NCBI GenBank assembly: GCA_944322325.1
Contig: CALUOQ010000006.1
Location: forward strand, 75,134 to 139,133
Direction of reading: 5' to 3'
DNA: 64,000 nt
Source: an uncultured Alloprevotella sp.
Lineage (GTDB): Bacteria > Bacteroidota > Bacteroidia > Bacteroidales > Bacteroidaceae
Shown: positions 10,313-62,347 of the stretch, piece by piece
Numbering within the stretch: the stretch's first letter is position 1
Layout of the letters: each line of letters opens with the position of its first letter
Made by a program: the position numbers and the translations under genes
The notes under the pieces: model-generated
Seen by the model: the letters and a program-made list of their open reading frames with translations, nothing else
Databases searched by the model: none
Told to the model about the DNA's origin: nothing

Positions 10313-10352
10313 TGCCGGCAGTACGTCAACACGCTGCACTTAATTCCGACTT

Positions 10353-11213
10353 ATGAAACGACCTCTCCTACCCTGCCTCGCGCTGGGCCTGCTCCTCGCC
10401 GCGGTGCCCTCCGCAGCCGAAGCCCAAGTGCTGGAACAAGTAGTCAACTTTTCCGGCGACCTCGAGACTGAAATGATTTTTCCCCTCAGCCACGACGGCC
10501 GTTTGTGGGACCTGAAAGGAAAAGTGAAGAAAGTGACCATCGACGCCGGCGACGGCCAGACGACGACCTTGGAGTTCGACGAGAACGGGCGCCTGCTCCG
10601 CAACGGCGAGCAGACCTACCGCTACGACGCCGACGGGCTCCTCGTCGAGTGTTTGCAGGACCAGCCGGACGCCTTCGGCACCGTCACGAGGCGGCATCGC
10701 TACGCCTACGACTACGACGAGAACGGGCGCCTCACCCGGCGCCGCTATACGGCCTACGAACAGACCGACGGCGACTGGAAGCCCTACGGCGAAACCGACG
10801 TCCACACCTACACCTACACGCCGGGCGGCGATCTGGCCACCGTGAAGTGCCCCACCCTCGCGACAGCCGACTACGCCTACACCGGGGGCTACCTGACCAA
10901 GGCCGGCAGCAAGCGCTACAAGTGGGACACCGCCGCCGGGCAGCTTCAGGCCTACGCCGGACTGGAGGACGGCATCGACGGCGTGCAGCTCGTCACCGGC
11001 GCAGTGGCCTACAACGACCGCGGATTCATCGCCCGCCGCGTAAAGACACTACAGGCCGTCGACCCCGCCACCCATCGCCCCGCGGGCGAAAAGTTCACCG
11101 TCACGACGGACTACCGCTACGCCGTCGACGAACAGGGCAACTGGACCCAGGTGAACTACTCGCTCGAAGGCGTCGACTACAGCATACGCCGCGCCATCGA
11201 GTACTACCCCTGA
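10353..11213 (+). CDS. Secreted hypothetical protein with YD/RHS-like dipeptide repeats
   Basis: 286 aa with a signal peptide (MKRPLLPCLALGLLLAAVPSAAEAQ). Repeated 'YRYDADGLL', 'YAYDYDENGRLT' and 'YTYTPGGDL' motifs resemble YD repeats. Confidence 0.55.
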   Translation: MKRPLLPCLALGLLLAAVPSAAEAQVLEQVVNFSGDLETEMIFPLSHDGRLWDLKGKVKKVTIDAGDGQTTTLEFDENGRLLRNGEQTYRYDADGLLVECLQDQPDAFGTVTRRHRYAYDYDENGRLTRRRYTAYEQTDGDWKPYGETDVHTYTYTPGGDLATVKCPTLATADYAYTGGYLTKAGSKRYKWDTAAGQLQAYAGLEDGIDGVQLVTGAVAYNDRGFIARRVKTLQAVDPATHRPAGEKFTVTTDYRYAVDEQGNWTQVNYSLEGVDYSIRRAIEYYP

Positions 11214-11232
11214 CGCGGCTTACGCAGGCACA

Positions 11233-11291
11233 GCTACGCAAAAGACTCCGGGAACGGCCATCGGCGTTGTTCCCGGAGTCTTTTGCGTAGC
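11233..11291. terminator. Bidirectional terminator hairpin between convergent genes
   Basis: Perfect 23-bp inverted repeat gctacgcaaaagactccgggaac / gttcccggagtcttttgcgtagc with a 13-nt loop. A/T runs inside the arms give a U-tract on both strands. Confidence 0.65.
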
Positions 11292-11307
11292 TACATGCCC
11301 CCGAATC

Positions 11308-12663
11308 TCAGAGATACTGATGGAAAAGGGCGACCGCCTCGATGCCGCGACGGAAGATGTCGAGACGGAAGTTCTCGTTGGGCGAATGGATGGCGTCGCT
11401 CTCAAGACCGAAGCCCATGAGCACAGTCTTCACGCCCAGTTCGCGCTCGAAGTCGCTGATGATAAGTATGCTGCCGCCGCGCCGCACGCCGAGGGGCTTG
11501 CGCCCGAACGCCTCGGCAAAGGCCCGCTCGGCAGCGCGGTAGGCCGGCAAGGTCAGGGGGCAGACATAGCCCTCGCCACCATGCAGGGGCGTGACCTCGA
11601 CCTGCACGCTGGGCGGCGCGACGCGGCGGAGGTAGTCGGCAAAAAGGCGCGATATTTTCTCGTGGTCCTGATGAGGCACGAGCCGGCACGACACCTTGGC
11701 CCACGCCCGCGACGGGATGACCGTCTTGGCGCCCTCGCCGGTGTAGCCGCCCCAGATGCCGCACACGTCGAACGACGGCCGGCAACTATTGCGTTCCAGC
11801 GTCGAGTAACCGCGCTCGCCCTCGAGCTCACGCACGCCGATGGCCGCCTTGTAGGCAGCCTCGTCGAAGGGAATGGCGGCCACCATGGCGCGCTCCTCGG
11901 GCGAGATGTCCTCCACGTCGTCGTAGAACCCCGGCACGGCGATGCGTCCGTCGGCGTCGGTCACGCCGGCCAGCAGGCGACACAGCACGTTGATAGGGTT
12001 GGCCACGGCGCCGCCGAAATGTCCCGAGTGGAGATCGCGGTTGGGCCCGGTGACACACACTTCCCAATAAGCCAGACCGCGCAGGCCCGTAGTGAGCGAC
12101 GGCAGGTCGGCACCGAGCATACTCGTGTCGGACACCAGAATGACGTCCGCCCGCAGCAATTCGCGGTGCGCGCGCAGGAAGGCGTTCAAACTGGGGGAGC
12201 CAATCTCTTCCTCACCCTCGAAGATGAATTTCACGTTGTGGCGCAAGCGGCCCTCGCGAACGAGGTACTCGAAAGCCTTGACCTGAATGAGCGCCTGCCC
12301 CTTGTCGTCGTCGGCCCCGCGGCCCCAGACGCGACCGTCGGCCACGGTGAGCGTAAACGGCGGCGTACGCCACAGCTCGAGCGGCTCGGGCGGCATGACG
12401 TCGTAGTGCGCGTAGACCAGCACCGTAGGCGCCGAGGCGTCGACACGCTTCTCCGCGTAGACCAAGGGGTTACCCGCCGAGGGCATCACGCGCGCCTCGT
12501 CGGCCCCGGCGGCCAGCAGCAAGTCGCGCCAATGCGCGGCGCAACGGTCGATGTCGGCCCGGTGCTCGGGCTGGGCGCTGACGCTGGGAATGCGGACGAG
12601 GCCGGCCCACTCGTCCAGAAAGCGCGACTCGTTCGCGCGGATATACTCCTTTATTTCCATCAC
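11308..12663 (-). CDS. M20 family metallopeptidase (dipeptidase-like)
   Basis: 451 aa. 'VLVYAHYDVMP', 'GRGADDDKG' and 'FEGEEEIGS' are M20/M25/M40 metal-ligand motifs. Confidence 0.85.
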   Translation of the reverse strand: MMEIKEYIRANESRFLDEWAGLVRIPSVSAQPEHRADIDRCAAHWRDLLLAAGADEARVMPSAGNPLVYAEKRVDASAPTVLVYAHYDVMPPEPLELWRTPPFTLTVADGRVWGRGADDDKGQALIQVKAFEYLVREGRLRHNVKFIFEGEEEIGSPSLNAFLRAHRELLRADVILVSDTSMLGADLPSLTTGLRGLAYWEVCVTGPNRDLHSGHFGGAVANPINVLCRLLAGVTDADGRIAVPGFYDDVEDISPEERAMVAAIPFDEAAYKAAIGVRELEGERGYSTLERNSCRPSFDVCGIWGGYTGEGAKTVIPSRAWAKVSCRLVPHQDHEKISRLFADYLRRVAPPSVQVEVTPLHGGEGYVCPLTLPAYRAAERAFAEAFGRKPLGVRRGGSILIISDFERELGVKTVLMGFGLESDAIHSPNENFRLDIFRRGIEAVALFHQYL

Positions 12664-47014: not shown

Positions 47015-47370
47015 CCTAAAATAACGAAGAATCGGCGAAAAAAACGCGACTTCCTTGCTCGCTTTTGAAATTAGCCGTATATTTGCCCTTAGAAAAAGGC
47101 TGTATCGGTTCGATCGGGGGTCTCATCAATAATATCTGAATACCGAGAAAGCTACTCCGCTCAATGGCGGGCCGACACGACGCAGTCGGGGTCGGATTAC
47201 AGAGAACGGAGAGGCACTCAAATCTTACTTTATCTCGGAGTTCCATCACATCGCCGGTACAGCCTCTTTTCTTTTTTTTCGCCCGGCCCTGCCTGCCGCA
47301 TTCTTCCTTCCGTTTTCTGAATCCCGTCTGCTGCCCGACCGCATAGCATCCGTCTTTCGCGTAAATACGT

Positions 47371-48170
47371 ACAGCTTTTGCGCCACGCGTCGCCCTGCCC
47401 TCGCGCTCCCTGAAACCGAACCCACGTAGGGGCGCGCCGACAGGCACGCCCGCGAAACCGATTTCGTCCGAACCAGCCCGGCACCCGTGCGATGTGTGCG
47501 CCGGGCGGGCGTGCCTGTCGGCGCGCCCCTACCTGCCTCGCGGCCACCGCGTCATGCGCCGCCCTGCCTTCGCGCTCCTTGAAACCGAACCCACGTAGGG
47601 GCGCGCCGACAGGCGCGCCCGCGTACTCGACTTCGTCCGGACCAGACCGGAACCCGTGCGACGTATGCGCCAACCGGGCGTGCCTGTCGGCGCGCCCCTA
47701 CCTGCCTCACGGTCTTTGCGCCATGCGCCGCACGGACCTCGATTTTACAAGTACTACGATAGAAATTCCTATCGTAGTCTTAGGATTTTCTATCGTAGTA
47801 CTTGTTCTGTACGGGAACTACACTTGTTATTCCTGCGACGGAACCCACGTAGGGGCACGCCGACAGGCACGCCCGCGAAACCGATTTCGTCCGAACCAGC
47901 CCGGCACCCGCGCGACGTATGCGCCAACCGGGCGTGCCTGACGGCGCGCCCCTACCTGCCTCGCGGCCACGGAGTCACGCGCCGCCCTGCCTTCGCGCTC
48001 CTTGAAACCGAACCCACGTAGGGGCGCGCCGACAGGCACGCCCGCGAAGCCGACTTCGTCCGAACCAGCCCGGCACCCGCGCGACGTATGCGCCAACCGG
48101 GCGTGCCTGTCGGCGCGCCCCTACCTGCCTTGCGGCTTCAACGTCCTCATGGCTGCGGCGGCGCGCCATG
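47371..48170. repeat. Tandem array of four GC-rich 107-nt hairpin units (family B)
   Basis: The hairpins lie at 47426..47532, 47595..47701, 47849..47955 and 48018..48124. Each has 27-nt arms GTAGGGGCGCGCCGACAGGCACGCCCG / CGGGCGTGCCTGTCGGCGCGCCCCTAC (0-2 mismatches) around a conserved 53-nt loop. The linkers are conserved as well. The period is 169 bp, and 254 bp where A8 is inserted. Confidence 0.85.
47741..47830. repeat. Family-A element, copy A8, nested inside the family-B array
   Basis: 'ttttacaagtactacgatagaaattcctatcgtagtcttaggattttctatcgtagtacttgttctgtacgggaactacacttgtt'. Confidence 0.8.
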
Positions 48171-48807: not shown

Positions 48808-49746
48808 CTACTCAGGTTCCACCTCCATGGATGGCACCCATTGGCGGCGGAAGTCCTCGGGCCACTGGTGCGTCTCGCGCTGAAAGAAGCGCCTGAAATA
48901 GTTCACGTCCGGTAAACCCAACTCGCGCACAATTTCAAGAATAGGCCTATCCGAATAAGCCAGCATCTGCTTCGCCTTAAGTATATACCAATCATGCATC
49001 ACCTGTAGCGGCGTCACGCCGGCCACGTCGCTTGTGACTCGTTGCAGCTTTCGCATGGACAGTCCCAGCATCTCGGCGTAATCATTTACTTTAAGCGCCT
49101 CCTTGTAGTGCTGCTCCAGCAATTGCTGAAAGCGGTAAAACGTGTGCAGTTGTTTTTGACTTTGAGACTTCTGGCTGTCCGGCCAAACACAGTGCCGCCT
49201 GAAAAACACGAAAAGCAGCGTGAGGTGAGCCGCCAGGCAGTCCCAATGCGCATCCAGGAACTTGCCCGTCGTCTGTTCCCGCCCGATGCGGTCCAACAAG
49301 TCGCGCAGTTCGTCCTCGGCCTCGGGCGGCACGTCGCAGTAGGGTACACGCCGGTAACGGTTGAACAGGCCGAATTCAAAATCCTCGGCCAGCTGCGCGT
49401 TGACTAAGGGCAGCGCGTCGCGCCCCAACAGCAGGCTGACGCCCGCCTCGCCACACATATTATTATAAGCGTGCATCTGGTCGGCCGAAAGGAAGAATAC
49501 GCGGCCCGGGCGTACCTCATGCGGCTCGAAGTCGACGATGTGCGTCCCCCGGCCGGCGGTGAACCACAACACGGAGTGGAACCCGTGCGAGTGCACCGTT
49601 TCCTTCATCTTCGGATGGACAACCGCCGCCTCGTCGAAGGCCGCCACGTCGCAATAGAACGGGCTTCCCGACCCGTCGTTCAGCTCGTAATGCAACCGTT
49701 CTGCCCCGTCCACTTTTCGGATCGTTCTTTCGTAACAATGGTTCAT
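48808..49746 (-). CDS. AraC family transcriptional regulator (cupin N-domain + HTH_18)
   Basis: 312 aa. The C-terminal double HTH includes 'VNDYAEMLGLSMRKLQRVTSDVAGVTPLQVMHDWYILKAKQML' and 'ILEIVRELGLPDVNYFRRFFQRETH'. Confidence 0.85.
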   Translation of the reverse strand: MNHCYERTIRKVDGAERLHYELNDGSGSPFYCDVAAFDEAAVVHPKMKETVHSHGFHSVLWFTAGRGTHIVDFEPHEVRPGRVFFLSADQMHAYNNMCGEAGVSLLLGRDALPLVNAQLAEDFEFGLFNRYRRVPYCDVPPEAEDELRDLLDRIGREQTTGKFLDAHWDCLAAHLTLLFVFFRRHCVWPDSQKSQSQKQLHTFYRFQQLLEQHYKEALKVNDYAEMLGLSMRKLQRVTSDVAGVTPLQVMHDWYILKAKQMLAYSDRPILEIVRELGLPDVNYFRRFFQRETHQWPEDFRRQWVPSMEVEPE

Positions 49747-49918: not shown

Positions 49919-52321
49919 ATGCCCACCTCGCCCGCCATATCCGTCTGCATGTCGATGTACAACGCCGCACCCTACCTGCGCGAGTGCATCGACAGTGTGC
50001 TGGCCCAGACGTTAGCGGACTTCGAGTTCATCATCGTCGACGACGGGTCGGAGGACGACAGCGCGACGATCGTGGCCTCGTATGCCGACCCGCGCATCCG
50101 GCTGATACGGGGCGATCACGACTACGTGGCCTCGCTCAACCGCTCGCTCGACGAGGCGCGGGGCCGCTACGTCGCCCGCATGGACGCCGACGACGTGATG
50201 CACCCCGAGCGCCTGGCGCGGCAGTTCGCCTATATGGAGGCGCACCCCGACGTCGACCTGACGGGTGGTCGCATGACGGCCTTTCGCGACGACATCGGCA
50301 CCCCGCTGTTCGAGCTCTACGTCCGCGAGGGGCGCCTCGACCTGGCCGACCTGCTCGACGGCTGCTGCATCTGCCACCCCACGGTGATGGTGCGCACCGA
50401 GCGCCTCAACGCGCCGGCCCGGCTGCGCTATCGCAAAGAGTGGGTCTACGCCGAGGACTACGACCTGTGGGTCGAGATGCTCGGCCACGGCCTGCGCCTC
50501 GTCAACCTGCCCGACATCATGGCCTACTACCGCCTCCACTCCGGCCAGATCACCGCCTGCCGCCGCGACGAGCAGGGCGAGAAGTCAGGCGCCATACGCG
50601 AACGCGCCCTGCGGCTTATCGGCCAGCTGACGGACGAAGCCTTCACCGAGGAGGCCGACGTGCCCGCCTCCACCAGGCGGCTGACCGTCGTCATGCCCTT
50701 CCTGAACGAAGGCGAGGAGGTCGGCCGCACCGTGCGCAGCATCCGCCAGACGGCGGGCGACTCGGTCGACATCCTCGTCCTCAACGACGATTCCGACGAC
50801 GGCTACGACTACGAGGCCGACCTGGCCGGACTCGGCGTCACCTACCTGCACAACCGCCACCGTCTCGGCGCCGCCTTAGCCAAGGAGCGCGGCGCCCGGC
50901 TGGCCCGGACGCCTTATTTTATGTTGCTCGACGCCCACATGCGTTTCTACGAGCCGGGCTGGGCCGACTACGTGGCCGACGAGCTCGACCGCGACTCCCA
51001 GCGCCTCCTCTGTAGCAAGTCCATCTCGCTGCAAAAGGACGAGCAGGGCCACGTCGCACCGGCCCCCGACACCTGCTCGCCGCAGGGCGCCTACCTGATG
51101 TTCCTCTCGCAAAAGAACGTCCCTGCCATCGACTGGAACAACTACGAGGAACGCCTGCCCACCTGTGCCGAAAACCAGATTCCCTGCGTGCTCGGTGCCG
51201 GCTATGCCACCTCCAAGACTTACTGGCAAAAGATTCGCGGCCTCCAGGGCCTCGTCCATTACGGCTGCGAGGAGGCTTACATCAGCATCAAGGCCTGGAA
51301 GGAGGGCGGGGGCTGCTACCTACTGCCCCGGCTGGCCATCGGGCACATCTACCGCAAGGCTTTCCCTTACAAGGTCCACTCCTTCCTTTACCTGTATAAC
51401 TACCTCGCCATCAGCGAGCTGCTTTTCCCCACGTCCGAGCGGTACTTCGCCAAGGCCGTGGCGTGGCAGCTGAACAAGAAAGCCCTCCACACGACGCTGG
51501 AGTTCATGGACACACGCCGCGAGCTGAACCAGGAACTGAAAGCCTGCTACCGCACCCTCCGCCGGCACGACTTCGCCTACGTCAAGCGCCTGAACGAAAT
51601 TTGCCGCAAGGTGGCCCAGCGCGTCAACCGCATCTCCGACGACGAGGCGGCACAGGCCATGGACTTCCTGACCGAGCGCCGCCAGACCCTCGGCGGCATC
51701 GGCTTGTTCGACGGCCTGGCGGGCGCCCTCATCGCCACCCTGCTGTACGTCGAGGCCGGCCACGAGACGCAGGAGAGCCTCGCCGCGGAACTGTGGGAGC
51801 GCCTCTCGTCCCAGCTGTCGCAGCCCCACAACCTCTCGTTCCGCTCGGGGCTGACCGGCGTCGGCTGGGCGCTGATTTACGCCGCCTCCCACGGGCTCAT
51901 AGAGGACAGCATCGACGCGGAGCTCGCCCTGATCGACCGGCAGGTGGCCACGCTCAGCCTGCGGCGCTGCGACGATCTGTCGTTCCTCGACGGGCTGGGC
52001 GGCATCTACGCCTACGTCACGGCGCGCCTCGGCTACGACCGGCGGCGCGGCCTGCCCGAGGCGACGTTCGCGCCCGGTTTCCTCGAGGAGATGGACGCCG
52101 AGGCACGCCGCGTGCTGACCGACTCCGACGACTGGCGCACGAAAAATTTCGCCGGACAGTTCACCGAGCGCCACGCCGACGACTGGGAAATCCTCGCCCC
52201 GGAGTTTCCCGAAATCGTCGAACTGCCCGACTACCTGCCCAACGACGTAGGCAAATGGCAGCTCACGCTGCCGGGCATCGTCGGCTCGGTCATCAACAAA
52301 CTCATCAACGAATTCCATTAA
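49919..52321 (+). CDS. Tandem GT-A glycosyltransferase fused to a LanC-like helical-repeat C-terminal domain
   Basis: 800 aa.
- Module 1 (residues about 6-230) is a classic GT2 ('ISVCMSMYNAAPYLRECIDSVLAQT', 'IIVDDGSED', DxD 'RMDADD').
- Module 2 (about 255-485) has 'VVMPFLNEGEEVGRTVRSI', a DxH at 'LLDAHMRF' (50930..50938) and 'GCEEAYISIKAWKEGGGCYLLPRLAIGHIYRK', which resembles the polypeptide-GalNAc-transferase (GT27) catalytic core.
- Residues about 590-705 carry three 'G(L/I)xxG(L/G)xG' repeats reminiscent of LanC, without obvious Zn ligands. Confidence 0.8.
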   Translation: MPTSPAISVCMSMYNAAPYLRECIDSVLAQTLADFEFIIVDDGSEDDSATIVASYADPRIRLIRGDHDYVASLNRSLDEARGRYVARMDADDVMHPERLARQFAYMEAHPDVDLTGGRMTAFRDDIGTPLFELYVREGRLDLADLLDGCCICHPTVMVRTERLNAPARLRYRKEWVYAEDYDLWVEMLGHGLRLVNLPDIMAYYRLHSGQITACRRDEQGEKSGAIRERALRLIGQLTDEAFTEEADVPASTRRLTVVMPFLNEGEEVGRTVRSIRQTAGDSVDILVLNDDSDDGYDYEADLAGLGVTYLHNRHRLGAALAKERGARLARTPYFMLLDAHMRFYEPGWADYVADELDRDSQRLLCSKSISLQKDEQGHVAPAPDTCSPQGAYLMFLSQKNVPAIDWNNYEERLPTCAENQIPCVLGAGYATSKTYWQKIRGLQGLVHYGCEEAYISIKAWKEGGGCYLLPRLAIGHIYRKAFPYKVHSFLYLYNYLAISELLFPTSERYFAKAVAWQLNKKALHTTLEFMDTRRELNQELKACYRTLRRHDFAYVKRLNEICRKVAQRVNRISDDEAAQAMDFLTERRQTLGGIGLFDGLAGALIATLLYVEAGHETQESLAAELWERLSSQLSQPHNLSFRSGLTGVGWALIYAASHGLIEDSIDAELALIDRQVATLSLRRCDDLSFLDGLGGIYAYVTARLGYDRRRGLPEATFAPGFLEEMDAEARRVLTDSDDWRTKNFAGQFTERHADDWEILAPEFPEIVELPDYLPNDVGKWQLTLPGIVGSVINKLINEFH

Positions 52322-52328: not shown

Positions 52329-53638
52329 ATGAAGAAAAGTCTCTACAACTTCCTGTTTCTTTGCGAGGGCGACTGGGTCTTGTTCAACCTCGCCACCGAG
52401 GAGATGAGCCTCCTCGACGCCAAGGTGAAGCAAATCTACGAGGAAAACGACATGGAGGGTATCCGCAGGCTCCACCCGGACTTCTACACCTTTCTGACGG
52501 AGAAGCGCTTCGCCGTACCCGACGACGAGGACGAAGCCGCCGCCTGCATCGCCCGCTGGGACCGCGAGGACAACGACCCGACCACTTTCTCGCTCACCGT
52601 TAACCCTACGCTCGACTGCAACATGCGCTGCTGGTACTGCTACGAGCGCCACCACACGGACCGCACCATGAGCGCCGAGGTGGCCGCAAGCGTATTCAAG
52701 TTCGTGGAAAGGAAGCTGGCCGAGCCCGAACTGAAGCACTTCAACCTCGCCTTCTTTGGCGGCGAGCCTTTAGTGGAGTTCCAGTCGGTGGTCAAGCCGC
52801 TGGTGGACCACACCTGCGCCGTGGCCGACCGGTTGGGCAAGGAGGTCGGCCTCAGCTTCACGACGAACGGCTACCTGCTCACGCCCGACGTGCTGCAATA
52901 CCTCGCCGACACGGGGTGCCACGTCAATTTCCAAATCACGCTCGACGGCAACCAGCGCCTCCACGACCGCACACGCCACCTCGCCGACGGCTCCGGCAGC
53001 TACGCCCGTATACTCGACAACTGCCACAACCTGCTGGCGCAGCCCCGGACGAGCCTGACGCTCCGCTGCAACTATACGCAGATGAACGCAGCGACGTTCA
53101 TGGACCTCGTCCGCGACCTGCCGGACCACGGCATCACCCCGAGCGAAGCGCTCCACATCGACTTCCAGCGCGTATGCAGGACCGCGGGAACAACAAGGAG
53201 GTCGACGAGCAAATCCACCGCGTACAGCTGGTCCTCCAGCGCGACGGCTATTCCACCTCGGACGTATGGACTTTCCATAAATACCGCTGCTACGCCGAGC
53301 GCAATAACCATATTGTCGTCAACTACGACGGTAACCTGTTCCACTGCACGGCGCGCGACTTCACCCCCACCGCTGCCGAGGGCGAACTCGACGCCGAAGG
53401 GCACCTTCAGCCCAACGAGAAGTCGGCCAAGCGCGCCCAGGCCAAGTGGGACAACGACGCCTGTCGCGCCTGCACAGTCTATCCCCTCTGCGGCGGCCTT
53501 TGCAGCCAGCAAAAACTTGAGCACCTCGGCGTAAGGGGCTGCATCGCCGGACGCGACGAGAAGGCGAAACGCGAAATCGCCGAACAGCGATTGCTACAAC
53601 TGATAGAGATGGCTAAAAAACAGCCCAAACACAATTAA
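52329..53638 (+). pseudogene. Radical SAM/SPASM peptide maturase, reading frame broken near 53150..53176
   Basis: Frame 1 (52329..) gives an N-terminal extension of about 95 aa, then 'CNMRCWYCY' (CxxxCxxC, 52617..52640) and a TIM-barrel-like sequence up to 'EALHIDFQRV'. After that it degenerates into S/T/A/P/R-rich text. The +2 frame (in ORF 52916..53638) picks up 'MQDRGNNKEVDEQI...CYAERNNHIVVNYDGNLFHCTARDF...ACRACTVYPLCGGLCSQQ', the SPASM signature CX2CX5CX3C (53462..53506). Joined, the two parts make about 436 aa. Confidence 0.8.
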
Positions 53639-53661: not shown

Positions 53662-53913
53662 ATGAGATTAAAGAAAAATCTATCTCAGCTTGTGGAGTCC
53701 AACTTTACTCCACTCAGTACGGACAAGGAAGGCCTTCTGCGCGGAGGCTTCGGAGCAATGACATTCGACGCAGCTGCTCATGTCGCTGCCCGTTCTAATT
53801 ATCTTTTTTGCAATAATGACAATTGCAATGACGGGTGCTCAAATGATTGCAATAAGTCTTGTGCTCCTCCTTCAAAGTCTGGGGAATCCGCCGCACTTTT
53901 CCAAGGATTTTAA
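53662..53913 (+). CDS. RiPP precursor-like peptide: Gly-Gly leader + CXXX-repeat Cys/Asn/Asp-rich core
   Basis: 83 aa: MRLKKNLSQLVESNFTPLSTDKEGLLRGG | FGAMTFDAAAHVAARSNYLFCNNDNCNDGCSNDCNKSCAPPSKSGESAALFQGF. It starts 23 nt after the maturase stop. Cys residues sit at 50, 55, 59, 63 and 67. The gene is visibly AT-richer than its surroundings. Confidence 0.7.
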   Translation: MRLKKNLSQLVESNFTPLSTDKEGLLRGGFGAMTFDAAAHVAARSNYLFCNNDNCNDGCSNDCNKSCAPPSKSGESAALFQGF

Positions 53914-53964: not shown

Positions 53965-54003
53965 GTGCTCCATTGCCCACAGCGATCTGAAAACTATCCA
54001 CCT

Positions 54004-56949
54004 ATGAAAAAAATTCTAACCCTCCTTCTTGCCCTGTTATCCCTACCTTTGGCCCTTTCGGCACAGAAGTGCTGGATTGAGTTCCGCGTGTACGAAGAAA
54101 TCACCGGTAAAGAAATCGAGGCCCCGCACTTCACCCTTATTTACGAAGACTCCATTGAGGTTCCCGCCGAGTACAAGTTGCAGGAGGCCACCTATGTTAA
54201 TTCGCCTAAGACTTACCGTGCACATACTTTGGTGTTCGACTATCGCAAGGGGAAGTACACGCTTCGCGTCGAAAAGGAGGGTTATGAATCGGGGAGCAAG
54301 GATTTTCGCGTCGTCTCGCGACGCCTCACGGGCTTTGGCCTCGGTACCATCTTGCTGAAGAAGCGGCGCCACGTCGAGCTGGGCGAGGCCACCGTGCGGG
54401 CCACCCACATCAAGATGGTGATGCGCGGCGACACCGTCGTCTACGACGCGGCGGCCTTCGACCTGGCCGAGGGGTCGATGCTCGACGCCTTGGTGGAGCA
54501 GCTGCCGGGCGTGGAGCTGAAAGACGGGCAGATACGGGTCAACGGAAAGTTTATCGAGAGCCTCCTGCTGAACGGCGAGGATTTCTTCGCGGGCAATCCG
54601 AAGGTCGCCCTGGAGAACCTGCCGGCCTACACGGTGAAGCAAATCAAAGTGTATGACCGCGCCGAGCGCGACGCCTACCTCAAGCCGAAAGGGGCGGACG
54701 GCAAGGTCATCGGCGCCGACGAGCACATGGTGATGGACGTGCAGCTGAAGAAGGCCTACGCTACGGGATGGATGGGCAACGTCGAGGGCGGATACGGCCT
54801 GCCCGACGACCGCTATCTCGGCCGGGCCTTCGGTCTGGGCTATAGGGACAAGGCGCGCTTCTCGGTCTTTGCCAACCTGAACAACATCAAGAACACGCAA
54901 ATCGGGCGCAGCAGCGGCCAGTGGAGCGGGGGCTGGCCGCAGGACGGCGAGCTCGACGTGAAGATGAGCGGGGCGGACTACTACTTCAGCCGCGGCCGGG
55001 CGTGGGTGGCCGGCGACGTGCTGATCACCCACGAGGAGCCCAAGGTGGAGCAGAAGCAGAGCGCCGTCTCCTTCTTCAACTCGGGCGACGTCTACGAGCG
55101 GCTGCACAGCGTCAGCCGGGAGCGCAAGTTCCACCTCATCACGGCACACCAGTTGCGCTTCACGGACGACAATTTCTATTTCCAGGTAATACCGCGGCTG
55201 GACTACCTGCACAACGACGTCAGCCGCCTGAGCCGCGCCGCGCAGTTCACCGCCAACCCCACCGAGGCCTACCGTATGGAGTCGCTCGACTCCCTCTTCG
55301 CCCTCGGCGGACTGCGCTCGCCCTTCGCCGTCAGCCTGCTCAACCGCACCGGGCAGATGCAGGAAGGCCCCGAAAGCTGGATTATCGCCGGCATCAACGC
55401 CAGCGCGACCATCAGCATCCCCCACCTGAACGACAACGTTAAACTCTACGCGGACGGCGAGTACCGCCGCGACACCGAACGCCCGCTCACGACGTGGAGC
55501 CGCGCCTTCGGGCCGCAAAGCACGGCAGGCAGCACGGCGCAAAACGTCCTCCAGAACAAGGACTACGACGCGCGGCAATACCACGTCAAGGCCGGAGCGA
55601 GCTATACCTACTGGTGCGTCCCCTACCGCGAACACGACACCCACGCCTTCATCGCGCAACCGAAGTTCGACTACGCCCGCGACCACCACGACCGCGCGAA
55701 CACCCTGTGGCAGTTAGAGGAAAGCCTGACCGACGCCGCGGCGGGCCAGGGCGTCGTCCTGCCCTCGACGATCGACCCCGCCCGGCTGGCCCTCGACCTC
55801 AACAATTCCTATCACTCCGCGCTGGCCCAGGACGACTATGCGCCGGGCGTGGAGCTGGACTACCAGTTCCTGCCCGAAGAGGGTGACCTTCTGAGGGACT
55901 ACACCGTATCGCTCGACCTGACGCAACACCTGCGCCGCGAACGTCTCGACTACGAGCGCGACGGCCTCGACACGACCGTGACGCGCTGGTCGGGCTCGCT
56001 GGAGCCCACCGTCGGGCTGGAATACCGCGACAAGCACCCCGAGACGCCCACCCGCCTGACCCTGACCTACGGCTACAGCCAGGCAATGCCGAGCCTCTAC
56101 TACCAGCTCGGCACGGTCGACGACAGCGACCCGGCCAACGTCTACGTCAACAACCCGGGCCTGCGCCGGGCCTCCACCCACAACGCCAGCCTGGAGTTCA
56201 CCCGCTTCTGGCAGGCCACGCACCGCAACCTGAGCGTCAACGCCAACTTCAGCCACACCAACCGTGCCGTGGCCCAGGCGCGCCACTACGACCGCCAGAC
56301 GGGCGTCAGCACCTGGGTGCCCGAGAACATCGACGGCAACTGGAACACCGACGCCGCGGTGCAGTTCACGCTGCCCTTTGGCCGCGACGAGGCCTTCCAG
56401 TTCCAGACGGCCACGACCGGCGCCTTCGTCCACTCGGTGGACTACGCCACCGACACCGAGGAACTGACGCGCAGCGTCGTGGACAACCTGCGGCTCGGCG
56501 AACGGCTCGGCCTGACCTACCGCGTCAACAAGCACACCTTCGGTCTCAAGGGCAGCCTGGCCTGGCTGCGCAGCCGCTCGGAGCGCGCCAATTTCGACGA
56601 CATCTCCGCCTTCGACGTCACGGCGGGCGCCAACGTATTGCTCAACCTGCCCCAGGAGTGGCAAATAGGCACCGACATGACCCTGTACTGCCGACGCGGA
56701 TACAGCGACGCGACGCTCAACACGACGGACTGGGTGTGGAACGCCTCGCTCAGCAAGTCCCTGCTCGACGGCAAGCTGTCGCTGAAACTCGACGCCGTGG
56801 ACATACTCGGCCAAATCAGCAACGTGCAGCACACGGTCAACGCGCAGGGACGCACCGAAACCTGGACGAACGCCGTGCGCAACTACGCCATGCTCCACGT
56901 CACCTACCGTTTCCACATCCTCCCCAAGAAAAAAGCCGCCGACAACTGA
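54004..56949 (+). CDS. Outer-membrane beta-barrel family protein (CarboxypepD_reg-like N-domain + plug-like segment + large barrel)
   Basis: ORF 53965..56949, start at ATG 54004 (MKKILTLLLALLSLPLALSAQ). 'GDTVVYDAAAFDLAEGSMLDALVEQLPGVELKDGQIRVNGKFIESLLLNGEDFF' is the TonB-receptor-plug-like motif of the Bacteroidetes 'OMP_b-brl_3'-type family as I recall it. The C-terminus has the aromatic strand 'LHVTYRFHI'. Confidence 0.7.
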   Translation: MKKILTLLLALLSLPLALSAQKCWIEFRVYEEITGKEIEAPHFTLIYEDSIEVPAEYKLQEATYVNSPKTYRAHTLVFDYRKGKYTLRVEKEGYESGSKDFRVVSRRLTGFGLGTILLKKRRHVELGEATVRATHIKMVMRGDTVVYDAAAFDLAEGSMLDALVEQLPGVELKDGQIRVNGKFIESLLLNGEDFFAGNPKVALENLPAYTVKQIKVYDRAERDAYLKPKGADGKVIGADEHMVMDVQLKKAYATGWMGNVEGGYGLPDDRYLGRAFGLGYRDKARFSVFANLNNIKNTQIGRSSGQWSGGWPQDGELDVKMSGADYYFSRGRAWVAGDVLITHEEPKVEQKQSAVSFFNSGDVYERLHSVSRERKFHLITAHQLRFTDDNFYFQVIPRLDYLHNDVSRLSRAAQFTANPTEAYRMESLDSLFALGGLRSPFAVSLLNRTGQMQEGPESWIIAGINASATISIPHLNDNVKLYADGEYRRDTERPLTTWSRAFGPQSTAGSTAQNVLQNKDYDARQYHVKAGASYTYWCVPYREHDTHAFIAQPKFDYARDHHDRANTLWQLEESLTDAAAGQGVVLPSTIDPARLALDLNNSYHSALAQDDYAPGVELDYQFLPEEGDLLRDYTVSLDLTQHLRRERLDYERDGLDTTVTRWSGSLEPTVGLEYRDKHPETPTRLTLTYGYSQAMPSLYYQLGTVDDSDPANVYVNNPGLRRASTHNASLEFTRFWQATHRNLSVNANFSHTNRAVAQARHYDRQTGVSTWVPENIDGNWNTDAAVQFTLPFGRDEAFQFQTATTGAFVHSVDYATDTEELTRSVVDNLRLGERLGLTYRVNKHTFGLKGSLAWLRSRSERANFDDISAFDVTAGANVLLNLPQEWQIGTDMTLYCRRGYSDATLNTTDWVWNASLSKSLLDGKLSLKLDAVDILGQISNVQHTVNAQGRTETWTNAVRNYAMLHVTYRFHILPKKKAADN

Positions 56950-56977: not shown

Positions 56978-57038
56978 AACAAGTACTACGACAGTTTTTC
57001 CTATCGCTGCGATAGGAAAAACTGTCGTAGTACTTGTT
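56978..57038. repeat. Family-A element, copy A9: perfect 61-nt palindrome
   Basis: aacaagtactacgacagtttttcctatcgc-t-gcgataggaaaaactgtcgtagtacttgtt. The 30-nt arms have zero mismatches. It begins 29 nt after the OMP stop codon. Confidence 0.9.
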
Positions 57039-58585: not shown

Positions 58586-61500
58586 GTGTCAATGAACCGA
58601 ATCATAGTCTCGTTGCTGCGCCGCGTGTGGCTGGCCGTCCTCGTTTGGCCGCTGGCTGCGCGGGGTGGCGACTTCGTCGACCTGCGGCCGGCCGACTACC
58701 CCGTGGGCGACGCGCTGCCCCGCTACACGACGGTCGTCCCGCTGGGGCGCGACTACGCAGCGGGCGGCTACACCGTGCGGGCTGACTATCCCGAATATGC
58801 CCCGCTGACCCCGGCGGAAACCAGACGCCTGCGCCGCGCAGGCATCACCCTGCCCGACACGCTGGAGGTCACCACGCGCCTCGGCGTCAGCCGCAAGGAA
58901 GGGCAGCTCGACGTGACGGTGCTGCCTTTCGTCGTGCGCGACGGACGGCCCATGCGCCTCGTGTCGTTCAAGCTGGCGGTCGAGCCGCGCAGCGCCGACC
59001 GCGCCCGCGCCCGGCGCACAGTCAGGTCCGCCGCCGACCGATGGGCAGACAGCTCGGTGCTGGCCGAAGGACGCTGGGTCAAGATTCGCGTCAGCGAGGA
59101 GGGTATTTACCAGCTCTCCGACGCCCAACTGTCGCAGATGGGCTTCGACCGCCCTGACCGCGTCCGCCTCTACGGTTACGGCGGCCGACCGCAACCCGAG
59201 ACGTTCGACTTCAGCTCGGCCGACTGCCCCCCCGACGACCTCGAGGAGGTGCCCCTCTACCGCCGCGAGGGCTCGCTCCTGTTCTTCGCCGAGGGCACGC
59301 AGCGCTGGACGCTGAGTGCGGGCCGCTGGACGCACACGAACAATCCCTACTCGGCCTATTCCTACTACTTCCTGACCGAGGGCGAGGCGACACCCGCCAC
59401 CCTACCGACACTCGACGCCCCCGCCAACAGCGGACAGACCGTTGCGCGCGTCACGGCCCATGCCGTCGTGGACAACGACGCCTACAGCTGGTTTCCCGGC
59501 GGCCGGCGCTTTTACGACAGCTACGACTTCGCGCAAGGCAACAGCCGCACGTTCAACGTCGCCACGCCGGGCGTCGTCGAAGGCGAGCAGGCCCGCGTAG
59601 CCGTACGCTTCTCCGCGCACTCGTCGACGGGCAGCGTGACCGTAGGCGTGGCGCTGGGCAACGCGACTGTCGGCACGCTCAACATCGCGCGCTCCGACGA
59701 ATCGGACCTAGCCCGCGAGACCGAATCGACTTTCACGACGACGGCACTCCGCGAGAGTAACGCCTTCCGCCTTACCACACCGACGGGCGTCCCGGCCCGC
59801 CTGGACTACATCCGCATCAGCTACGAACGGCAACTGACCGCCGGGAGCACGCCCCTTGTCTTTACGACCGCCACGTCGGGGCCGGTTACCTTCGAAATCA
59901 GCAACGCCGACACCCGGACGCGCGTATGGCGGATCGGGCAGGCCGGCGACCCCGTGGCCGAAGTGGCTGCGACGCTCGACGGCACCACGCTGCGCGCCCC
60001 CGTCAACCGGGGCGACCGGCGCTACGTGGTGTTCGACGCAACGGCCACCTACCCCGCCCCCACCGTCGTGGGCACCGTCGAGAACCAGAACCTCCACGCC
60101 GACCGCGACGTGGATATGGTGATCATCGTCCCGGCCAGCGGCACGCTGACGCAACCCGCCGAACGCCTCGCCGAAGCCCACCGCAGCGCACAGGGACTCA
60201 CCGTCAGGGTGGTCCGGGCCGACCAGATTTTCAACGAGTTCTCCTCCGGCACCCCCGACGCCAACGCCTATCGCCGCTACCTCAAGCTGCTGTACGACAG
60301 CAGCAGCGAGGGCCGCGAGCCGCGCTACCTGCTGCTCTTCGGCGACTGCTTGTGGGACAACCGCATGGTGACGCCGGAAAACCGGGGGAAGAACCCCGAC
60401 GACTACCTGCTGGCCTACGAGAGCGAAAACTCACTGAGCGAAATCGACTGCTACGTGACCGACGACTTCTTCGGTATGCTCGACGACGGCGAAGGCGCCA
60501 ACCTCCGAACGGAGAAAATGGACGTGGCCATCGGACGCTTCCCCTGCACCACCGAAAGCGACGCCCAGACACTCGTCAGCAAGGCTATCGCCTACCTGAA
60601 CAACGAGGCGGCAGGCCCGTGGCAGAACTTGCTCTACTTCCTGGCCGACGACGGCGACGGCAACCTGCACATGGAGGGCGCAAAGCGCGCCATGGACGCC
60701 ATCAGCGGACAGGCGGACGACTACGTCATACAGCCCGTGTTCTGGGACGCCTATCCCCGCGAGGTCACGTCGACGAGCCGCAGTTATCCCCAAGTCGAAG
60801 AACTGCTCCACACCGCCATGGCCGACGGCGCCTTAGTGATGAACTATACGGGGCACGGAGACCCGAACCGCGTGTCGCACGAAAATGTGCTCACCTTGGA
60901 GGATTTCCGGACGAACCGCACGACGGGACTGCCGCTCTGGGTGATGGCCTCGTGCGAGGTAACGCCCTACGACAACGGCGAGGACAACATGGGCCGCGCC
61001 GGCATACTCAATCCCGCCGGGGGCGGTATCGCGTTCATCTGCGCCTCCCGCACGGTCTACGCCAACCGCAACGAGGAACTCAACATGGCCCTTATGCCCG
61101 AACTCCTGGCACGCACGGCCGACGGACGGCAGCAGACCATGGGCGAAGCGCTGATGCACGCAAAAAACGCACTGGTCGAGTCGGGCGCGGACCAGACCTC
61201 GAACCGCATCAAGTACGCCCTGACGGGCGACCCCGCCCTGCCGCTCGCCACGCCGAGCGAGGGCATCGTCGTGGACAGTATCGACGGACGCCCCCTCGCT
61301 GACGGCGAAAAACTGACCTGGGCGGCGGGCAGCACGGTGCGCCTGAGCGGCCGCGTCGTGACCGACGGAGCCACGCCCATCGACGACTTCCGCGGCGTGG
61401 TCAGCGCCACCGTGTTCGACCGCGCCGAGACCGTGACGTGCCGCAACAACGACGGGTCGGCCGACGAGCCGTACGTGTTCACCCAGCGCAATAAGGTGAT

Positions 61501-62347
61501 TTTCGAAGGCAGCGACAGCGTGCGCAGCGGCCGATTCAGCCTCAAGTTCCAGGTACCGATGGACATCAGCTACTCCACCGACAACGGCCGCGTCGCCCTC
61601 TATGCCGTCAACGACAGCCACTCGCTCACCGCACACGGCGCCAACGAGCAGTTCTGCCTCGACGGTACGGCGCCGGGCCTCGTCGACGACACCGAGGGCC
61701 CCGACGTTTACGTCTACCTCAACCGGCCTGATTTCCCCGACGGCGGTCTAGTGGGCCCGACCCCTGTCTTTTTCGCCGAAATCACCGACTCGAGCGGCGT
61801 CAACACCACCGGCAACGGCGTGGGCCACGACTTGGAACTCAGCCTCAGCGGTACGGCCACCGGAAACTACGTGCTGAACAACTACTTCGCCTACGACTTG
61901 GGCAGCAGCACCCGCGGACGCGTCAGCTACGCCTTGCCCGAACTCGAGGAGGGCAGCTATCGCTTGCAGTTCCGCGCGTGGGACATCATGAACAACCCCA
62001 CGACCGTCAGCCTCAACTTCACGGTGGTGCGCGACCTGGCTCCGCAGCTTTCGGTCAGCGCCACCGACAACCCCGCGCGCACCTCGACGTCGTTCGTACT
62101 GACCTACGACCGGCCGGGCACGGCGGGCACGTTTACGGTCGAAGTGTTCGACCTCACGGGCCGCCGCCTGTGGACGCAGACCGCACAGACCACCTCGTCG
62201 ACCGGCAGTGTGACCATACCGTGGGACCTGACCGACACGGGCGGCGCGCCGATGAACGGCGGCGTCTACCTGTTCCGCGCGCGCCTCACCGCGGACGGCG
62301 CGACGACCGAAACGAAAGCCCAGAAAATGATTATCCTCAAACAATAA
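58586..62347 (+). CDS. porU: Type IX secretion system sortase PorU (C25-like peptidase)
   Basis: 1253 aa with a signal peptide. 'VDMVIIVPASGTLTQPAERLAEAHRSAQGLTVRVVRADQIFNEFSSGTPDANAYRRYLKLLYD' matches the gingipain/C25-like core of PorU. It is immediately followed by porV. The C-terminal beta-sandwich ends 'GVYLFRARL'. Confidence 0.85.
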   Translation: MSMNRIIVSLLRRVWLAVLVWPLAARGGDFVDLRPADYPVGDALPRYTTVVPLGRDYAAGGYTVRADYPEYAPLTPAETRRLRRAGITLPDTLEVTTRLGVSRKEGQLDVTVLPFVVRDGRPMRLVSFKLAVEPRSADRARARRTVRSAADRWADSSVLAEGRWVKIRVSEEGIYQLSDAQLSQMGFDRPDRVRLYGYGGRPQPETFDFSSADCPPDDLEEVPLYRREGSLLFFAEGTQRWTLSAGRWTHTNNPYSAYSYYFLTEGEATPATLPTLDAPANSGQTVARVTAHAVVDNDAYSWFPGGRRFYDSYDFAQGNSRTFNVATPGVVEGEQARVAVRFSAHSSTGSVTVGVALGNATVGTLNIARSDESDLARETESTFTTTALRESNAFRLTTPTGVPARLDYIRISYERQLTAGSTPLVFTTATSGPVTFEISNADTRTRVWRIGQAGDPVAEVAATLDGTTLRAPVNRGDRRYVVFDATATYPAPTVVGTVENQNLHADRDVDMVIIVPASGTLTQPAERLAEAHRSAQGLTVRVVRADQIFNEFSSGTPDANAYRRYLKLLYDSSSEGREPRYLLLFGDCLWDNRMVTPENRGKNPDDYLLAYESENSLSEIDCYVTDDFFGMLDDGEGANLRTEKMDVAIGRFPCTTESDAQTLVSKAIAYLNNEAAGPWQNLLYFLADDGDGNLHMEGAKRAMDAISGQADDYVIQPVFWDAYPREVTSTSRSYPQVEELLHTAMADGALVMNYTGHGDPNRVSHENVLTLEDFRTNRTTGLPLWVMASCEVTPYDNGEDNMGRAGILNPAGGGIAFICASRTVYANRNEELNMALMPELLARTADGRQQTMGEALMHAKNALVESGADQTSNRIKYALTGDPALPLATPSEGIVVDSIDGRPLADGEKLTWAAGSTVRLSGRVVTDGATPIDDFRGVVSATVFDRAETVTCRNNDGSADEPYVFTQRNKVIFEGSDSVRSGRFSLKFQVPMDISYSTDNGRVALYAVNDSHSLTAHGANEQFCLDGTAPGLVDDTEGPDVYVYLNRPDFPDGGLVGPTPVFFAEITDSSGVNTTGNGVGHDLELSLSGTATGNYVLNNYFAYDLGSSTRGRVSYALPELEEGSYRLQFRAWDIMNNPTTVSLNFTVVRDLAPQLSVSATDNPARTSTSFVLTYDRPGTAGTFTVEVFDLTGRRLWTQTAQTTSSTGSVTIPWDLTDTGGAPMNGGVYLFRARLTADGATTETKAQKMIILKQ

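Follow-up and report, generated by a model that had tools for sequence, protein, structure and literature searches.

A three-part glycosyltransferase with GT2, GT27-like and truncated LanC-like domains in probable peptide-modification clusters of Bacteroidales

Introduction

What does an enzyme act on when two GT-A glycosyltransferase domains are joined to a fragment of a LanC cyclase? The question is raised by a gene in a 64,000-nucleotide stretch of an uncultured Alloprevotella sp. (contig CALUOQ010000006.1, positions 75,134 to 139,133 of the forward strand), hereafter called the window. A first-pass annotation of these letters had described the product as a fusion of a classic GT2, a domain resembling the polypeptide N-acetylgalactosaminyltransferases (ppGalNAc-Ts) and LanC-like repeats, and had suggested two sequential sugar transfers onto a bound peptide. 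An open reading frame (ORF) search of the window places an ATG-to-stop frame of 800 codons at exactly 49919..52321 on the + strand, and all seven motifs quoted in that annotation are present in its translation.

Known cases of glycosylation in peptides made by ribosomes and modified after translation (RiPPs) employ SunS-type GT2 or GT1-type enzymes. We compared the domains of the glycosyltransferase (GT), its gene neighbourhoods and the associated peptides. The comparison points, with a probability of roughly 0.6, to an O-glycosyltransferase of a RiPP pathway that docks its substrate through a domain derived from LanC and would place sugars on a Ser/Thr/Pro tract of a precursor peptide.

Overall architecture

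A homology search returned 547 homologs of the 800-residue protein. The best 120 of them are mostly ~790-850 residues long, with 96-100% query coverage and 38-97% identity, and the sources listed among these include Prevotellaceae, Paraprevotella, Bacteroidaceae and B. fragilis. The 800-residue architecture recurs across Bacteroidales. Against a 96%-identical relative (locus L085), the ratio of nonsynonymous to synonymous substitution rates (dN/dS) of the GT gene is 0.13. Because of this ratio and the 547 homologs, the gene is taken as real and under selection; the GT gene and the neighbouring precursor gene are both under purifying selection.

The full-length AlphaFold model is predicted with a local distance difference test score (pLDDT) of 93.6 and a template modelling score (pTM) of 0.91. 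The first GT-A strand begins at residue 7 of the model, leaving no room for an N-terminal membrane anchor, and the modelled protein is probably cytoplasmic. No curated NCBIfam family covers the GT. All matches fall well short of their cut-offs (EpsE, for instance, scores 126 against 450 bits), and the generic matches are to EpsE/TuaG-type, exopolysaccharide (EPS) and teichuronic-acid enzymes. Databases label the homologs 'glycosyltransferase involved in cell wall biosynthesis'. The boundaries of the parts are given in Table 1; conservation of single residues was scored on an alignment of 48 homologs.

Module 1

Pfam Glycos_transf_2 (PF00535) matches the protein twice (E = 1.4e-48 for the whole protein), the best stretch being residues 8-131. 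Module 1 carries the motifs DDGS (residues 41-44), DxDD (residues 89-92) and the catalytic-base motif ED (residues 179-180), and the MDADD that had been read as its DxD motif is located at residues 88-92. Residues D41, D42, D89, D91, D92, E179 and D180 are invariant, and the model shows the strand and helix order of a GT-A fold. By sequence, module 1 is an ordinary inverting-type GT2.

The closest solved relative of module 1 is the glucuronosyltransferase (GlcA-T) domain of the chondroitin polymerase K4CP (6e-19). The S-glycosyltransferase SunS matches at E = 3e-3, over residues 4-98 (~95 residues) only. The first-pass annotation had made its proposal depend on the acceptors of the closest characterised relatives. 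For module 2 the nearest are ppGalNAc-Ts, which act on Ser/Thr, in line with that proposal; for module 1 the nearest are GT2s that elongate polysaccharides and glycans, as expected of a second-sugar transferase.

Module 2

When module 2 alone is searched against the Protein Data Bank (PDB) with phmmer, the top 16 matches are all ppGalNAc-Ts, from 1.4e-13 (GalNAc-T10) to 1e-5, and the alignments span the whole catalytic domain. The motifs of module 2 are NE (residues 263-264), DxH (residues 338-340), YGCEE (with E452) and GH..R (H476 and R479). They fall within the stretches quoted in the first-pass annotation, namely FLNEGEEVGRTVRSI (residues 261-275), LLDAHMRF (residues 336-343) and GCEEAYISIKAWKEGGGCYLLPRLAIGHIYRK (residues 449-480). 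In the alignments, the DxH of GalNAc-T2 and GalNAc-T10 is matched by D338-x-H340, the Glu of WGGE by E452, and GH..RK by G475-H476..R479. All of these motifs, NE included, are invariant or close to it; the DxH, H476 and E452 are strictly invariant, and R479 is nearly so. The counterpart of the Gal/GalNAc-T motif, YGCEEAYISIKAW..GGG...P....GHIYRK, is conserved as well. Where the GT27 motif has Trp and GGEN, module 2 has Tyr and GCEE. The parallel with GT27 motifs drawn in the first-pass annotation is borne out by PDB alignments and by conservation among homologs.

According to a survey of GT-A enzymes, replacement of DxD by DxH is specific to families GT27 and GT60, both of which comprise polypeptide Ser/Thr O-transferases, and the C-terminal His of GT27 is a metal ligand (PMC7185993). 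A Foldseek search with the full-length model retrieves ~40 ppGalNAc-T structures at E ~1e-15, ranked after K4CP and PmHS2. Lacking the lectin domain and the membrane anchor of GT27, module 2 is GT27-like in its catalytic domain only.

C-terminal domain

The linker that follows module 2 (residues ~488-590) has no family match. Beyond it, positions 6-116 of the 350-position Pfam profile LANC_like (PF05147) align weakly to residues 595-703 (E = 2.8e-4), and the 20.0 bits are just below the cut-off of 23.2 bits. NCBIfam weakly matches the beginning of the class III LanKC cyclase region. Searched against PDB, a profile built from the C-terminal domain alone finds NisC at 4.8e-7 (NisC residues 27-177), a class III LanKC at 5e-6, MadC at 2e-5 and LicM2 at 2e-4. 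The AlphaFold model of residues 515-800 is all-helical (pLDDT 91.3). Its top 12 Foldseek matches in PDB are all of the LanC fold, with ThurKC, MadC, CuvL, GCR2, LanCL1, NisC, LicM2 and LanCL2 among them; the probability is ~1 for the best, with E values of 0.02-0.24, a template modelling score normalized to the query of ~0.38 and 160-195 aligned columns.

The three repeat motifs noticed earlier are GLFDGLAGALI (residues 595-605), SGLTGVGWALIY (residues 643-654) and DGLGGIYAYV (residues 691-700). Invariant residues of the domain include G599, G644, G647, G649, W650, D673, G692/G694/G695, Y699 and R703, and the invariant positions are occupied by Gly, Trp, Tyr, Ile, Asp and Arg. The remark that no Cys/His zinc triad is present was correct, as C562, C684, H615, H637, H658, H752 and H800 (residues 560-800) are unconserved. 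In the tail, G789 is invariant in the alignment; the tail has no family match.

The claim of LanC-like repeats stands insofar as the repeats are homologous to those of LanC. The picture of a degenerate but complete alpha/alpha toroid does not stand: the zinc-bearing half is missing, not mutated. Sequence comparison makes the C-terminal domain homologous to the first ~3 LanC repeats only. We therefore reject a full LanC cyclase and a degenerate complete toroid, since the N-terminal ~3 repeats alone are present, and with the zinc-site half absent the domain is neither a closed toroid nor a cyclase. In addition, no LanB and no LanM, LanKC or LanL dehydratase occurs among the neighbours in the window and in the related loci inspected. 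Without a dehydratase in the cluster, cyclase activity is not possible.

The C-terminal domain had also been compared with the helical peptide-binding domain of SunS-type enzymes. The comparison is apt as an analogy of logic and fails as one of ancestry: SunS does not appear among the structures that match the C-terminal fold, and homology on the strength of its E value was rejected as negligible.

LanC-like half-domain in other proteins

A profile of the half-domain retrieves 4240 cluster representatives among 1.84 billion proteins, 1886 of them at E <= 1e-10. The half-domain stands alone or is fused to GT2, GT27-like, GT4, GT7-like and GT6+GT11 enzymes. Stand-alone proteins of 200-255 residues match profile positions ~4-120 only, and four of the five tested exceed the Pfam cut-off (24.6-39.1 versus 23.2 bits). 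A variant of ~550 residues (549-562) consists of module 2 and the LanC-like part without module 1, and is encoded beside exporters of the C39-peptidase ATP-binding cassette (ABC) type. No radical S-adenosylmethionine (radical SAM) gene lies near these loci, and the cores of their peptides, which carry double-glycine (GG) leaders, open with runs of Ser, Gly and Thr. According to Pfam, proteins of 606-670 residues have the half-domain N-terminal to a GT4 enzyme of GT-B fold, one protein is a GT7-like fusion, and one (P0230) joins GT6, GT11 and the LanC-like part.

A GG-leader peptide is encoded in all three fusion-protein neighbourhoods that could be recovered. In one, a LanC-GT4 fusion is accompanied by a GT32-like gene and a gene for a C39-VKOR protein. 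Another (locus L177, 4455-11715) contains a LanC-GT7-like fusion with Fkp, a sulfotransferase and GT10. The third contains a LanC-GT4 fusion with a GT2 and a radical SAM/SPASM enzyme. Because the half-domain joins transferases of differing fold and linkage, and a GG-leader peptide is present in every neighbourhood examined, substrate docking is the simplest reading. Judged from these sequence patterns, the chance that the LanC-like domain docks the peptide is about even.

Genes for stand-alone LanC-like proteins adjoin GT2 genes in loci L032, L033, L037, L055 and L064. This adjacency is not used as evidence, since those loci were retrieved with GT-derived patterns.

Conserved gene cassette

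To compile synteny, six homologs were looked up in their contigs, species-representative genomes were scanned, and metagenomes were scanned with the radical SAM gene at the centre (80 loci). The cassette comprises genes for the GT (~800 residues), a radical SAM/SPASM enzyme (~440), a GG-leader precursor (65-125), one to three outer-membrane proteins (OMPs; ~970), a C39-peptidase ABC exporter (~727) and a small membrane protein (~130-139). In all of the ~25 distinct full-length loci, the radical SAM/SPASM, precursor and OMP genes neighbour the GT. The exporter and the small membrane protein are present wherever the downstream sequence suffices, the lineage of the window excepted. Most of the 80 loci centred on the radical SAM gene keep the cassette. 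The gene order varies (GT, precursor, OMP, radical SAM, exporter in L008, L009 and L013), and the set stays intact.

The first-pass annotation had staked its proposal on the gene's neighbours. That proposal survives, as ~25 of ~25 loci adjoin a radical SAM and a precursor gene, not capsule or lipopolysaccharide (LPS) genes. Co-location with a precursor, a maturase and a leader-cleaving exporter, the mark of RiPP tailoring, is found in the related loci. The gene very probably encodes a RiPP-tailoring glycosyltransferase.

Several further features of the clusters were seen. A gene of the GT11 fucosyltransferase family (L001, 7161-7973) lies directly 5' of the B. fragilis GT; in that locus the GT occupies 8001-10409, the radical SAM gene 10414-11733 and the precursor gene 11793-12101. 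The cassette of L092/L093 (9001-18789) is on a conjugative element, since genes for TraG/type IV secretion system (T4SS) coupling, topoisomerase, DUF3945 and helicase proteins flank it. In a Prevotellaceae metagenome-assembled genome (L046, 3774-4079), a leftover piece of the GT, 102 residues long (residues 5-106, 74% identical), is found next to two OMP genes and an exporter, as if a cluster had been deleted there. The clusters L007 (4461-11945), L012, L115, L140 and L122 each have two or three precursor paralogs; in L007 each paralog is followed by its own OMP gene. In such multi-precursor clusters the cores are hypervariable and the leaders nearly identical.

Precursor peptides

Precursors in GT clusters are composed of four parts: a leader of the form ...PL...EGxL(R/K)GG, a core that is rich in Cys and Asn and built of NxxC repeats, a Ser/Thr/Pro tract and a short hydrophobic end. 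Examples of the tract are TTTTTTTTTTK, PSTSPSPSPSPSP, APSASPTPAQTSPSTSPNPSTSPKPT, GPTTPTTPTIGPSGSPTPTVTT and SSSSSSSSSDSNVGGGTTTSSPSSSSS. In 14 cores, 77 of the 107 core Cys residues have Asn at position -3, compared with 15 +/- 3.5 in shuffled sequences. The radical SAM enzyme NxxcB turns NxxC into Asn-Cys beta-thioethers (PMC9389541). Many of the NxxC repeats double as N-x-S/T/C sequons.

The tract is associated with the GT. We compared 48 distinct precursors from GT loci with 11 from related radical SAM loci without GT, scoring each by the maximum count of Ser, Thr and Pro in a Cys-free window of 10 residues. The median score is 7 in GT loci and 3 in GT-less loci (Mann-Whitney p = 2.4e-6, kinship being ignored). 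The last residue is F, L, I, M, V or W in 43 of the 48 GT-locus precursors and in 1 of the 11 others. In the GT-less cluster L163, the leader is of the same type and a Lys-rich spacer takes the place of the tract. The hydrophobic ends usually terminate in Phe (GFLF, FGLFGFF, SFVF, LLGF); they recall the C-terminal beta-signal of OMPs, and the clusters always encode an OMP barrel.

The precursor ORF of the window begins 23 nt past the radical SAM gene and reads MRLKKNLSQLVESNFTPLSTDKEGLLRGG followed by FGAMTFDAAAHVAARSNYLFCNNDNCNDGCSNDCNKSCAPPSKSGESAALFQGF. Its leader (residues 1-29) ends in LLRGG. Its core (residues 30-83, 53749-53910) has the repeats NDNC, NDGC and NKSC, then APPSKSGES, and then the hydrophobic end ALFQGF. 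The gene differs by one synonymous change in 252 nt from that of a relative with 4% overall divergence. Neither the precursor nor the small membrane protein has a significant match in Pfam or NCBIfam.

Proposed mechanism and alternatives

We infer the acceptor residues, the sugars, the order of transfer and the thioether chemistry as follows. The radical SAM/SPASM enzyme would cross-link the NxxC repeats through Asn-Cys thioethers, and the truncated LanC-like domain would dock the precursor together with the helical linker. Module 2, a retaining GT27-type domain that would bind Mn2+ through its DxH and C-terminal His, would transfer the first N-acetylhexosamine (HexNAc) or hexose onto Ser/Thr of the tract. 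Module 1, an inverting GT2, would add a second, beta-linked sugar to the first. In complete clusters, the C39-peptidase ABC transporter would cut after GG and export the product, and the OMP barrel and the small membrane protein would carry it across the envelope. From the motifs and the association described above, O-glycosylation of the tract by module 2 seems probable. Elongation of the first sugar by module 1 is a more tentative assignment, at slightly less than even odds.

Several points weigh against this reading. The identity of module 2 to GT27 enzymes is only ~20%. No ricin-type lectin domain is present (residues 488-800 are all-helical, with no lectin match in Pfam or Foldseek), and neither is a type II membrane anchor or any N-terminal hydrophobic segment. 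The tract of the window precursor, APPSKSGES, has three Ser and no Thr, and its score of 5 of 10 is at the weak end; precursors of L021a, L015, L016 and L017 also have poor Ser/Thr tracts despite the GT. The association test takes no account of phylogeny, and a small group of 11 peptides represents the GT-less loci. GT-derived patterns served to retrieve many of the comparison loci, which biases the adjacency of stand-alone LanC-like genes to GT genes there. Docking is proposed from fusions and co-occurrence, and the half-domain could instead bind a glycan, another pathway enzyme or membrane machinery. In the lineage of the window, a frameshift in the radical SAM gene is fixed, and a C39-ABC exporter is missing both next to the cluster and from the rest of the 64-kb window. 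In the literature searched, no member of the family has been characterised, and the only mention is a listing in a BAGEL4 survey (PMC10352776).

Other divisions of labour between the two modules were weighed. Both might act on the peptide independently, at different sites or residue types, and form no disaccharide; module 1 might, for example, attach S- or O-linked sugars to core Cys or Ser in the manner of glycocins, and module 2 modify Thr or Ser of the tail. The weak match of module 1 to SunS and the richness of the cores in Cys, Ser and Thr speak for this, as does the existence of variants with module 2 and the LanC-like part only, which makes module 1 dispensable for the first transfer. 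However, the strong relatives of module 1 (K4CP GlcA-T and EpsE/TuaG-type enzymes) elongate glycans, most core Cys residues lie within NxxC and are better explained as thioether partners, and the compact two-GT-A model resembles bifunctional enzymes that act on one chain. We regard independent sites as unlikely. Still less probable is a polymerase in which the two GT-A domains alternate, as in K4CP and PmHS2, to build a repeating disaccharide of the glycosaminoglycan (GAG) type, perhaps primed by a peptide as in a proteoglycan. Foldseek does rank K4CP and PmHS2 first for the full-length model (E = 1e-18, with both GT-A domains and 530-570 columns aligned), but the root-mean-square deviation (rmsd) of the alignment is 19-25 A, so the domain folds are shared and the arrangement is not. 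Bifunctional GAG polymerases have two inverting DxD GT2s and sit in a capsule locus. Here, module 2 has the retaining DxH/C-terminal His signature, and the neighbourhoods inspected are of RiPP type, with no capsule-export (kps-type) or UDP-sugar dehydrogenase gene seen in them.

The role of the LanC-like half-domain admits another reading, in which it binds a glycan or a partner (the radical SAM enzyme or the exporter) and the GT domains recognise the peptide themselves. Alpha/alpha folds are common in carbohydrate-active enzymes, Fernandez-Cantos et al. suggest that LanC-like proteins of Bacteroidales clusters may be nearer to endoglucanases (PMC10352776), the half-domain is also fused to late-acting GTs (GT11, GT6, GT7-like), and the associated leaders vary by cluster type. 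On the other hand, the domain is homologous in sequence to LanC cyclases, best of all to NisC, no glycoside hydrolase is among its top Foldseek hits, and a GG-leader peptide is the sole feature common to all contexts examined. We hold glycan or partner binding to be rather unlikely, with a minor share of the probability. Finally, the enzyme might make an envelope glycan, such as capsule, LPS or a precursor of general protein O-glycosylation, and the proximity of peptide genes would be coincidental. The database labels and the generic GT2 matches to EPS and teichuronic-acid enzymes would fit. Those matches are far under their cut-offs, though, the synteny of radical SAM, precursor, OMP and exporter genes holds across Bacteroidales families and on a conjugative element, and precursor composition co-varies with the presence of the GT. 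A coincidence of this kind is highly improbable, and a capsule or LPS glycosyltransferase was rejected on synteny.

The cluster in the window

Table 1. Features of the glycosyltransferase and its cluster in the window
Feature	Position	Strand	Basis
Bacteroidetes-type -7 promoter motif TAAATTTG (TAnnTTTG), 33 nt 5' of the GT start codon	49879..49886	+	Pattern search
Three-part 800-residue glycosyltransferase (GT2 + GT27-like GT-A + truncated LanC-like)	49919..52321	+	ORF, Pfam, AlphaFold, homologs
Module 1, inverting-type GT2 GT-A, residues ~1-240	49919..50638	+	Pfam PF00535, alignment, PDB search
Module 2, GT27-like GT-A, residues ~250-485	50666..51373	+	phmmer against PDB, Foldseek, alignment
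Helical linker, residues ~488-590, six predicted helices	51380..51688	+	Model secondary structure
Truncated LanC-like domain with three helical-hairpin repeats of GxxG type, residues ~595-750	51701..52168	+	Pfam, profile, Foldseek
C-terminal tail, residues 751-800, mostly coil and a final helix	52169..52318	+	Model, alignment
Radical SAM/SPASM maturase, split	52329..53638 (frames 52329..53534, 52916..53638)	+	CNMRCWYCY, NCBIfam
83-residue precursor peptide	53662..53913	+	ORF; homologous precursors in syntenic loci
Outer-membrane beta-barrel OMP_b-brl_3	53965..56949	+	Pfam PF14905, E = 1.5e-18
20-bp perfect hairpin, directly past the OMP gene	56986..57030		Terminator-like scan
AraC-family regulator, divergent	48808..49746	-	Pfam HTH_18 and AraC_binding

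The radical SAM gene starts 7 nt past the GT stop codon. The enzyme carries the CxxxCxxC motif and a SPASM domain, and matches the PapB family at E = 2e-34 to 6e-39. No NCBIfam cut-off is reached: the best match, TIGR04463, scores 147-185 versus 525 bits, and PapB and CefB are below theirs as well. Near 53175, a 1-nt deletion turns GTATGGCAGG (as in L085) into GTAT-GCAGG and puts the SPASM domain out of frame. Four other independent assemblies that encode an identical GT encode the identical 401-residue truncated product, so the deletion is real. A sequencing error is unlikely, given the 401-residue product in four assemblies and a different indel in L085. That indel is a separate one near the start of the L085 radical SAM gene, and the gene of L090 is split into 189 and 252 residues; disruption of the radical SAM gene seems to be recurrent. 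Relative to L085, dN/dS is 0.14-0.22 for the two radical SAM parts and 0.20 for the OMP gene.

The OMP probably starts at the ATG at 54001, with the signal-peptide-like MKKILTLLLALLSLPLALSAQ. The hairpin past the OMP gene is a copy of a dispersed repeat and likely marks the end of the operon. No membrane protein of ~130 residues follows the OMP gene in the window, where a methyltransferase and housekeeping genes are found. In a 77%-identical relative (L094), the exporter is apparently missing after the OMP gene as well, in a contig that ends soon after. Since the radical SAM gene is frameshifted and the exporter absent, the locus of the window may no longer make the full product. It is either recently disabled or working in reduced form.

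The pattern TAnnTTTG has 39 matches in the window versus 13.2 +/- 3.3 expected; by its position upstream of the GT, TAAATTTG may serve as its promoter. The AraC-family regulator is kept beside the cluster solely in close relatives.

Other elements surround the cluster. A 1253-residue Peptidase_C25 (gingipain-family) protein is encoded 3' of it (58586-62347, + strand). The Rfam family Bacteroidales-1, a suggested 6S-like RNA, matches 47098-47270 (+ strand) with 110 bits versus a gathering score of 60. Between this RNA and a 185-residue ORF, positions 47380-48135 contain at least eight GC-rich arms of 30 nt (CACGTAGGGGCGCGCCGACAGGCACGCCCG) in alternating orientation, with a tandem period of 169 nt and a 300-nt direct repeat of 92% identity. 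The array looks like an element of the repetitive extragenic palindrome (REP) or miniature inverted-repeat transposable element (MITE) type. A dispersed unit of ~21 nt (CTACGATAGAAATTCCTA-like) occurs at 7631, 27503, 30106, 39117, 47747-47805 and 56986-57030, and often makes long perfect hairpins where genes end; the hairpin after the OMP gene of the cluster is one of them.

Implications

Peptide glycosylation, radical SAM thioethers and export by way of a GG leader are each known already. What is new is their combination, the type of transferase and the reuse of a LanC fragment. The literature searched contains no GT27-like retaining transferase acting on a bacterial ribosomal peptide, no LanC fragment as a non-catalytic module and no description of a glycosylated ranthipeptide. 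An apparent match to 'GT27 in B. fragilis' proved to be the catalogue number of a cell line.

If the docking role is true, the half-domain is a new substrate-recruitment domain with 4240 cluster representatives, and a genome-mining handle for glycosylated peptides in Bacteroidota. The clusters are found in gut Bacteroidales of humans and animals (B. fragilis, Bacteroides ovatus, Paraprevotella, Prevotellaceae), sometimes on conjugative elements. The predicted products, cross-linked peptides with mucin-like glycosylated tails that are sometimes encoded near fucosyltransferase genes, could take part in microbe-microbe competition, act as decoys for lectins or phages, or mimic the host.

A broader proposal is speculative, and we doubt it more than we favour it. 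A truncated domain derived from LanC may serve Bacteroidota as a docking module of general use, analogous to the RiPP-recognition element, for at least five unrelated GT families, and the 800-residue enzyme may build mucin-type O-glycans on the Ser/Thr/Pro tail of an NxxC-cross-linked peptide. The families so recruited to exported GG-leader peptides may be GT2, GT27-like, GT4, GT7-like and GT6+GT11. On this proposal, the 800-residue enzyme would be, to our knowledge, the first bacterial initiator of the ppGalNAc-T type. GT11, GT6, GT10, a sulfotransferase or Fkp occurs in some clusters, and glycans there might therefore become host-like, fucosylated or blood-group-like. If true, these peptides would form a new class of glycosylated RiPPs that mimic host mucin glycopeptides in gut and mouth.

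Comparison with known systems

A BAGEL4 survey of Bacteroidales reported 'rSAM + LanC + GlyS' areas in B. fragilis and P. distasonis and remarked on LanC-like proteins without the zinc motif (Fernandez-Cantos et al. 2023, PMC10352776). These are probably the same kind of locus. The survey does no more than list which genes occur together (PMC10352776); it describes neither the fusion nor the GT27-like module, and it is equally silent on LanC's truncation, the tract and the wider set of GT-LanC fusions.

In its radical SAM/SPASM enzyme, which is related to PapB, CefB and TIGR04463, and in the NxxC-repeat core, the cluster resembles the NxxcB/PapB ranthipeptide systems. It differs in that its maturases score under every curated cut-off, its peptides carry a mucin-like tract, and its genes include a GT, an OMP and an exporter. 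With LanC, LanKC and LanM, the C-terminal domain shares homologous GxxG helical-hairpin repeats. The present domain has just the first ~3 of the 7 repeats (profile positions ~4-150 of 350), and the half with the Cys-Cys-His zinc site and the catalytic His is missing. SunS, ThuS and GccA follow a similar logic: a GT-A transferase carries a helical domain at its C-terminus, and the ribosomal peptide that it modifies is then exported through a C39-ABC transporter. Structures that match the C-terminal fold do not include the helical domain of SunS, and whereas glycocin enzymes have a single inverting GT2, the present enzyme pairs a GT2 with a retaining-type GT27-like domain.

K4CP of E. coli K4 and the Pasteurella heparosan synthase PmHS2 likewise have two GT-A domains per chain and are the top fold matches of the full-length model. 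They differ in the arrangement of the domains, in lacking a DxH/GT27-like module and in their capsule context, as opposed to a peptide pathway. The closest likeness of module 2 is to GT27, represented by human GalNAc-T2 and GalNAc-T10. Both have a GT-A domain with DxH and a C-terminal His as metal ligands, both have the Gal/GalNAc-T-type motif, here YGCEE...W..GG...P....GH..RK, and Ser/Thr-Pro-rich peptides are probable acceptors of the 800-residue enzyme as well. Unlike GT27 enzymes, the 800-residue protein is without a ricin-type lectin domain, a signal anchor and the disulfide pattern of the Golgi lumen; it is bacterial, probably cytoplasmic, and fused to a GT2 and a LanC-like domain.

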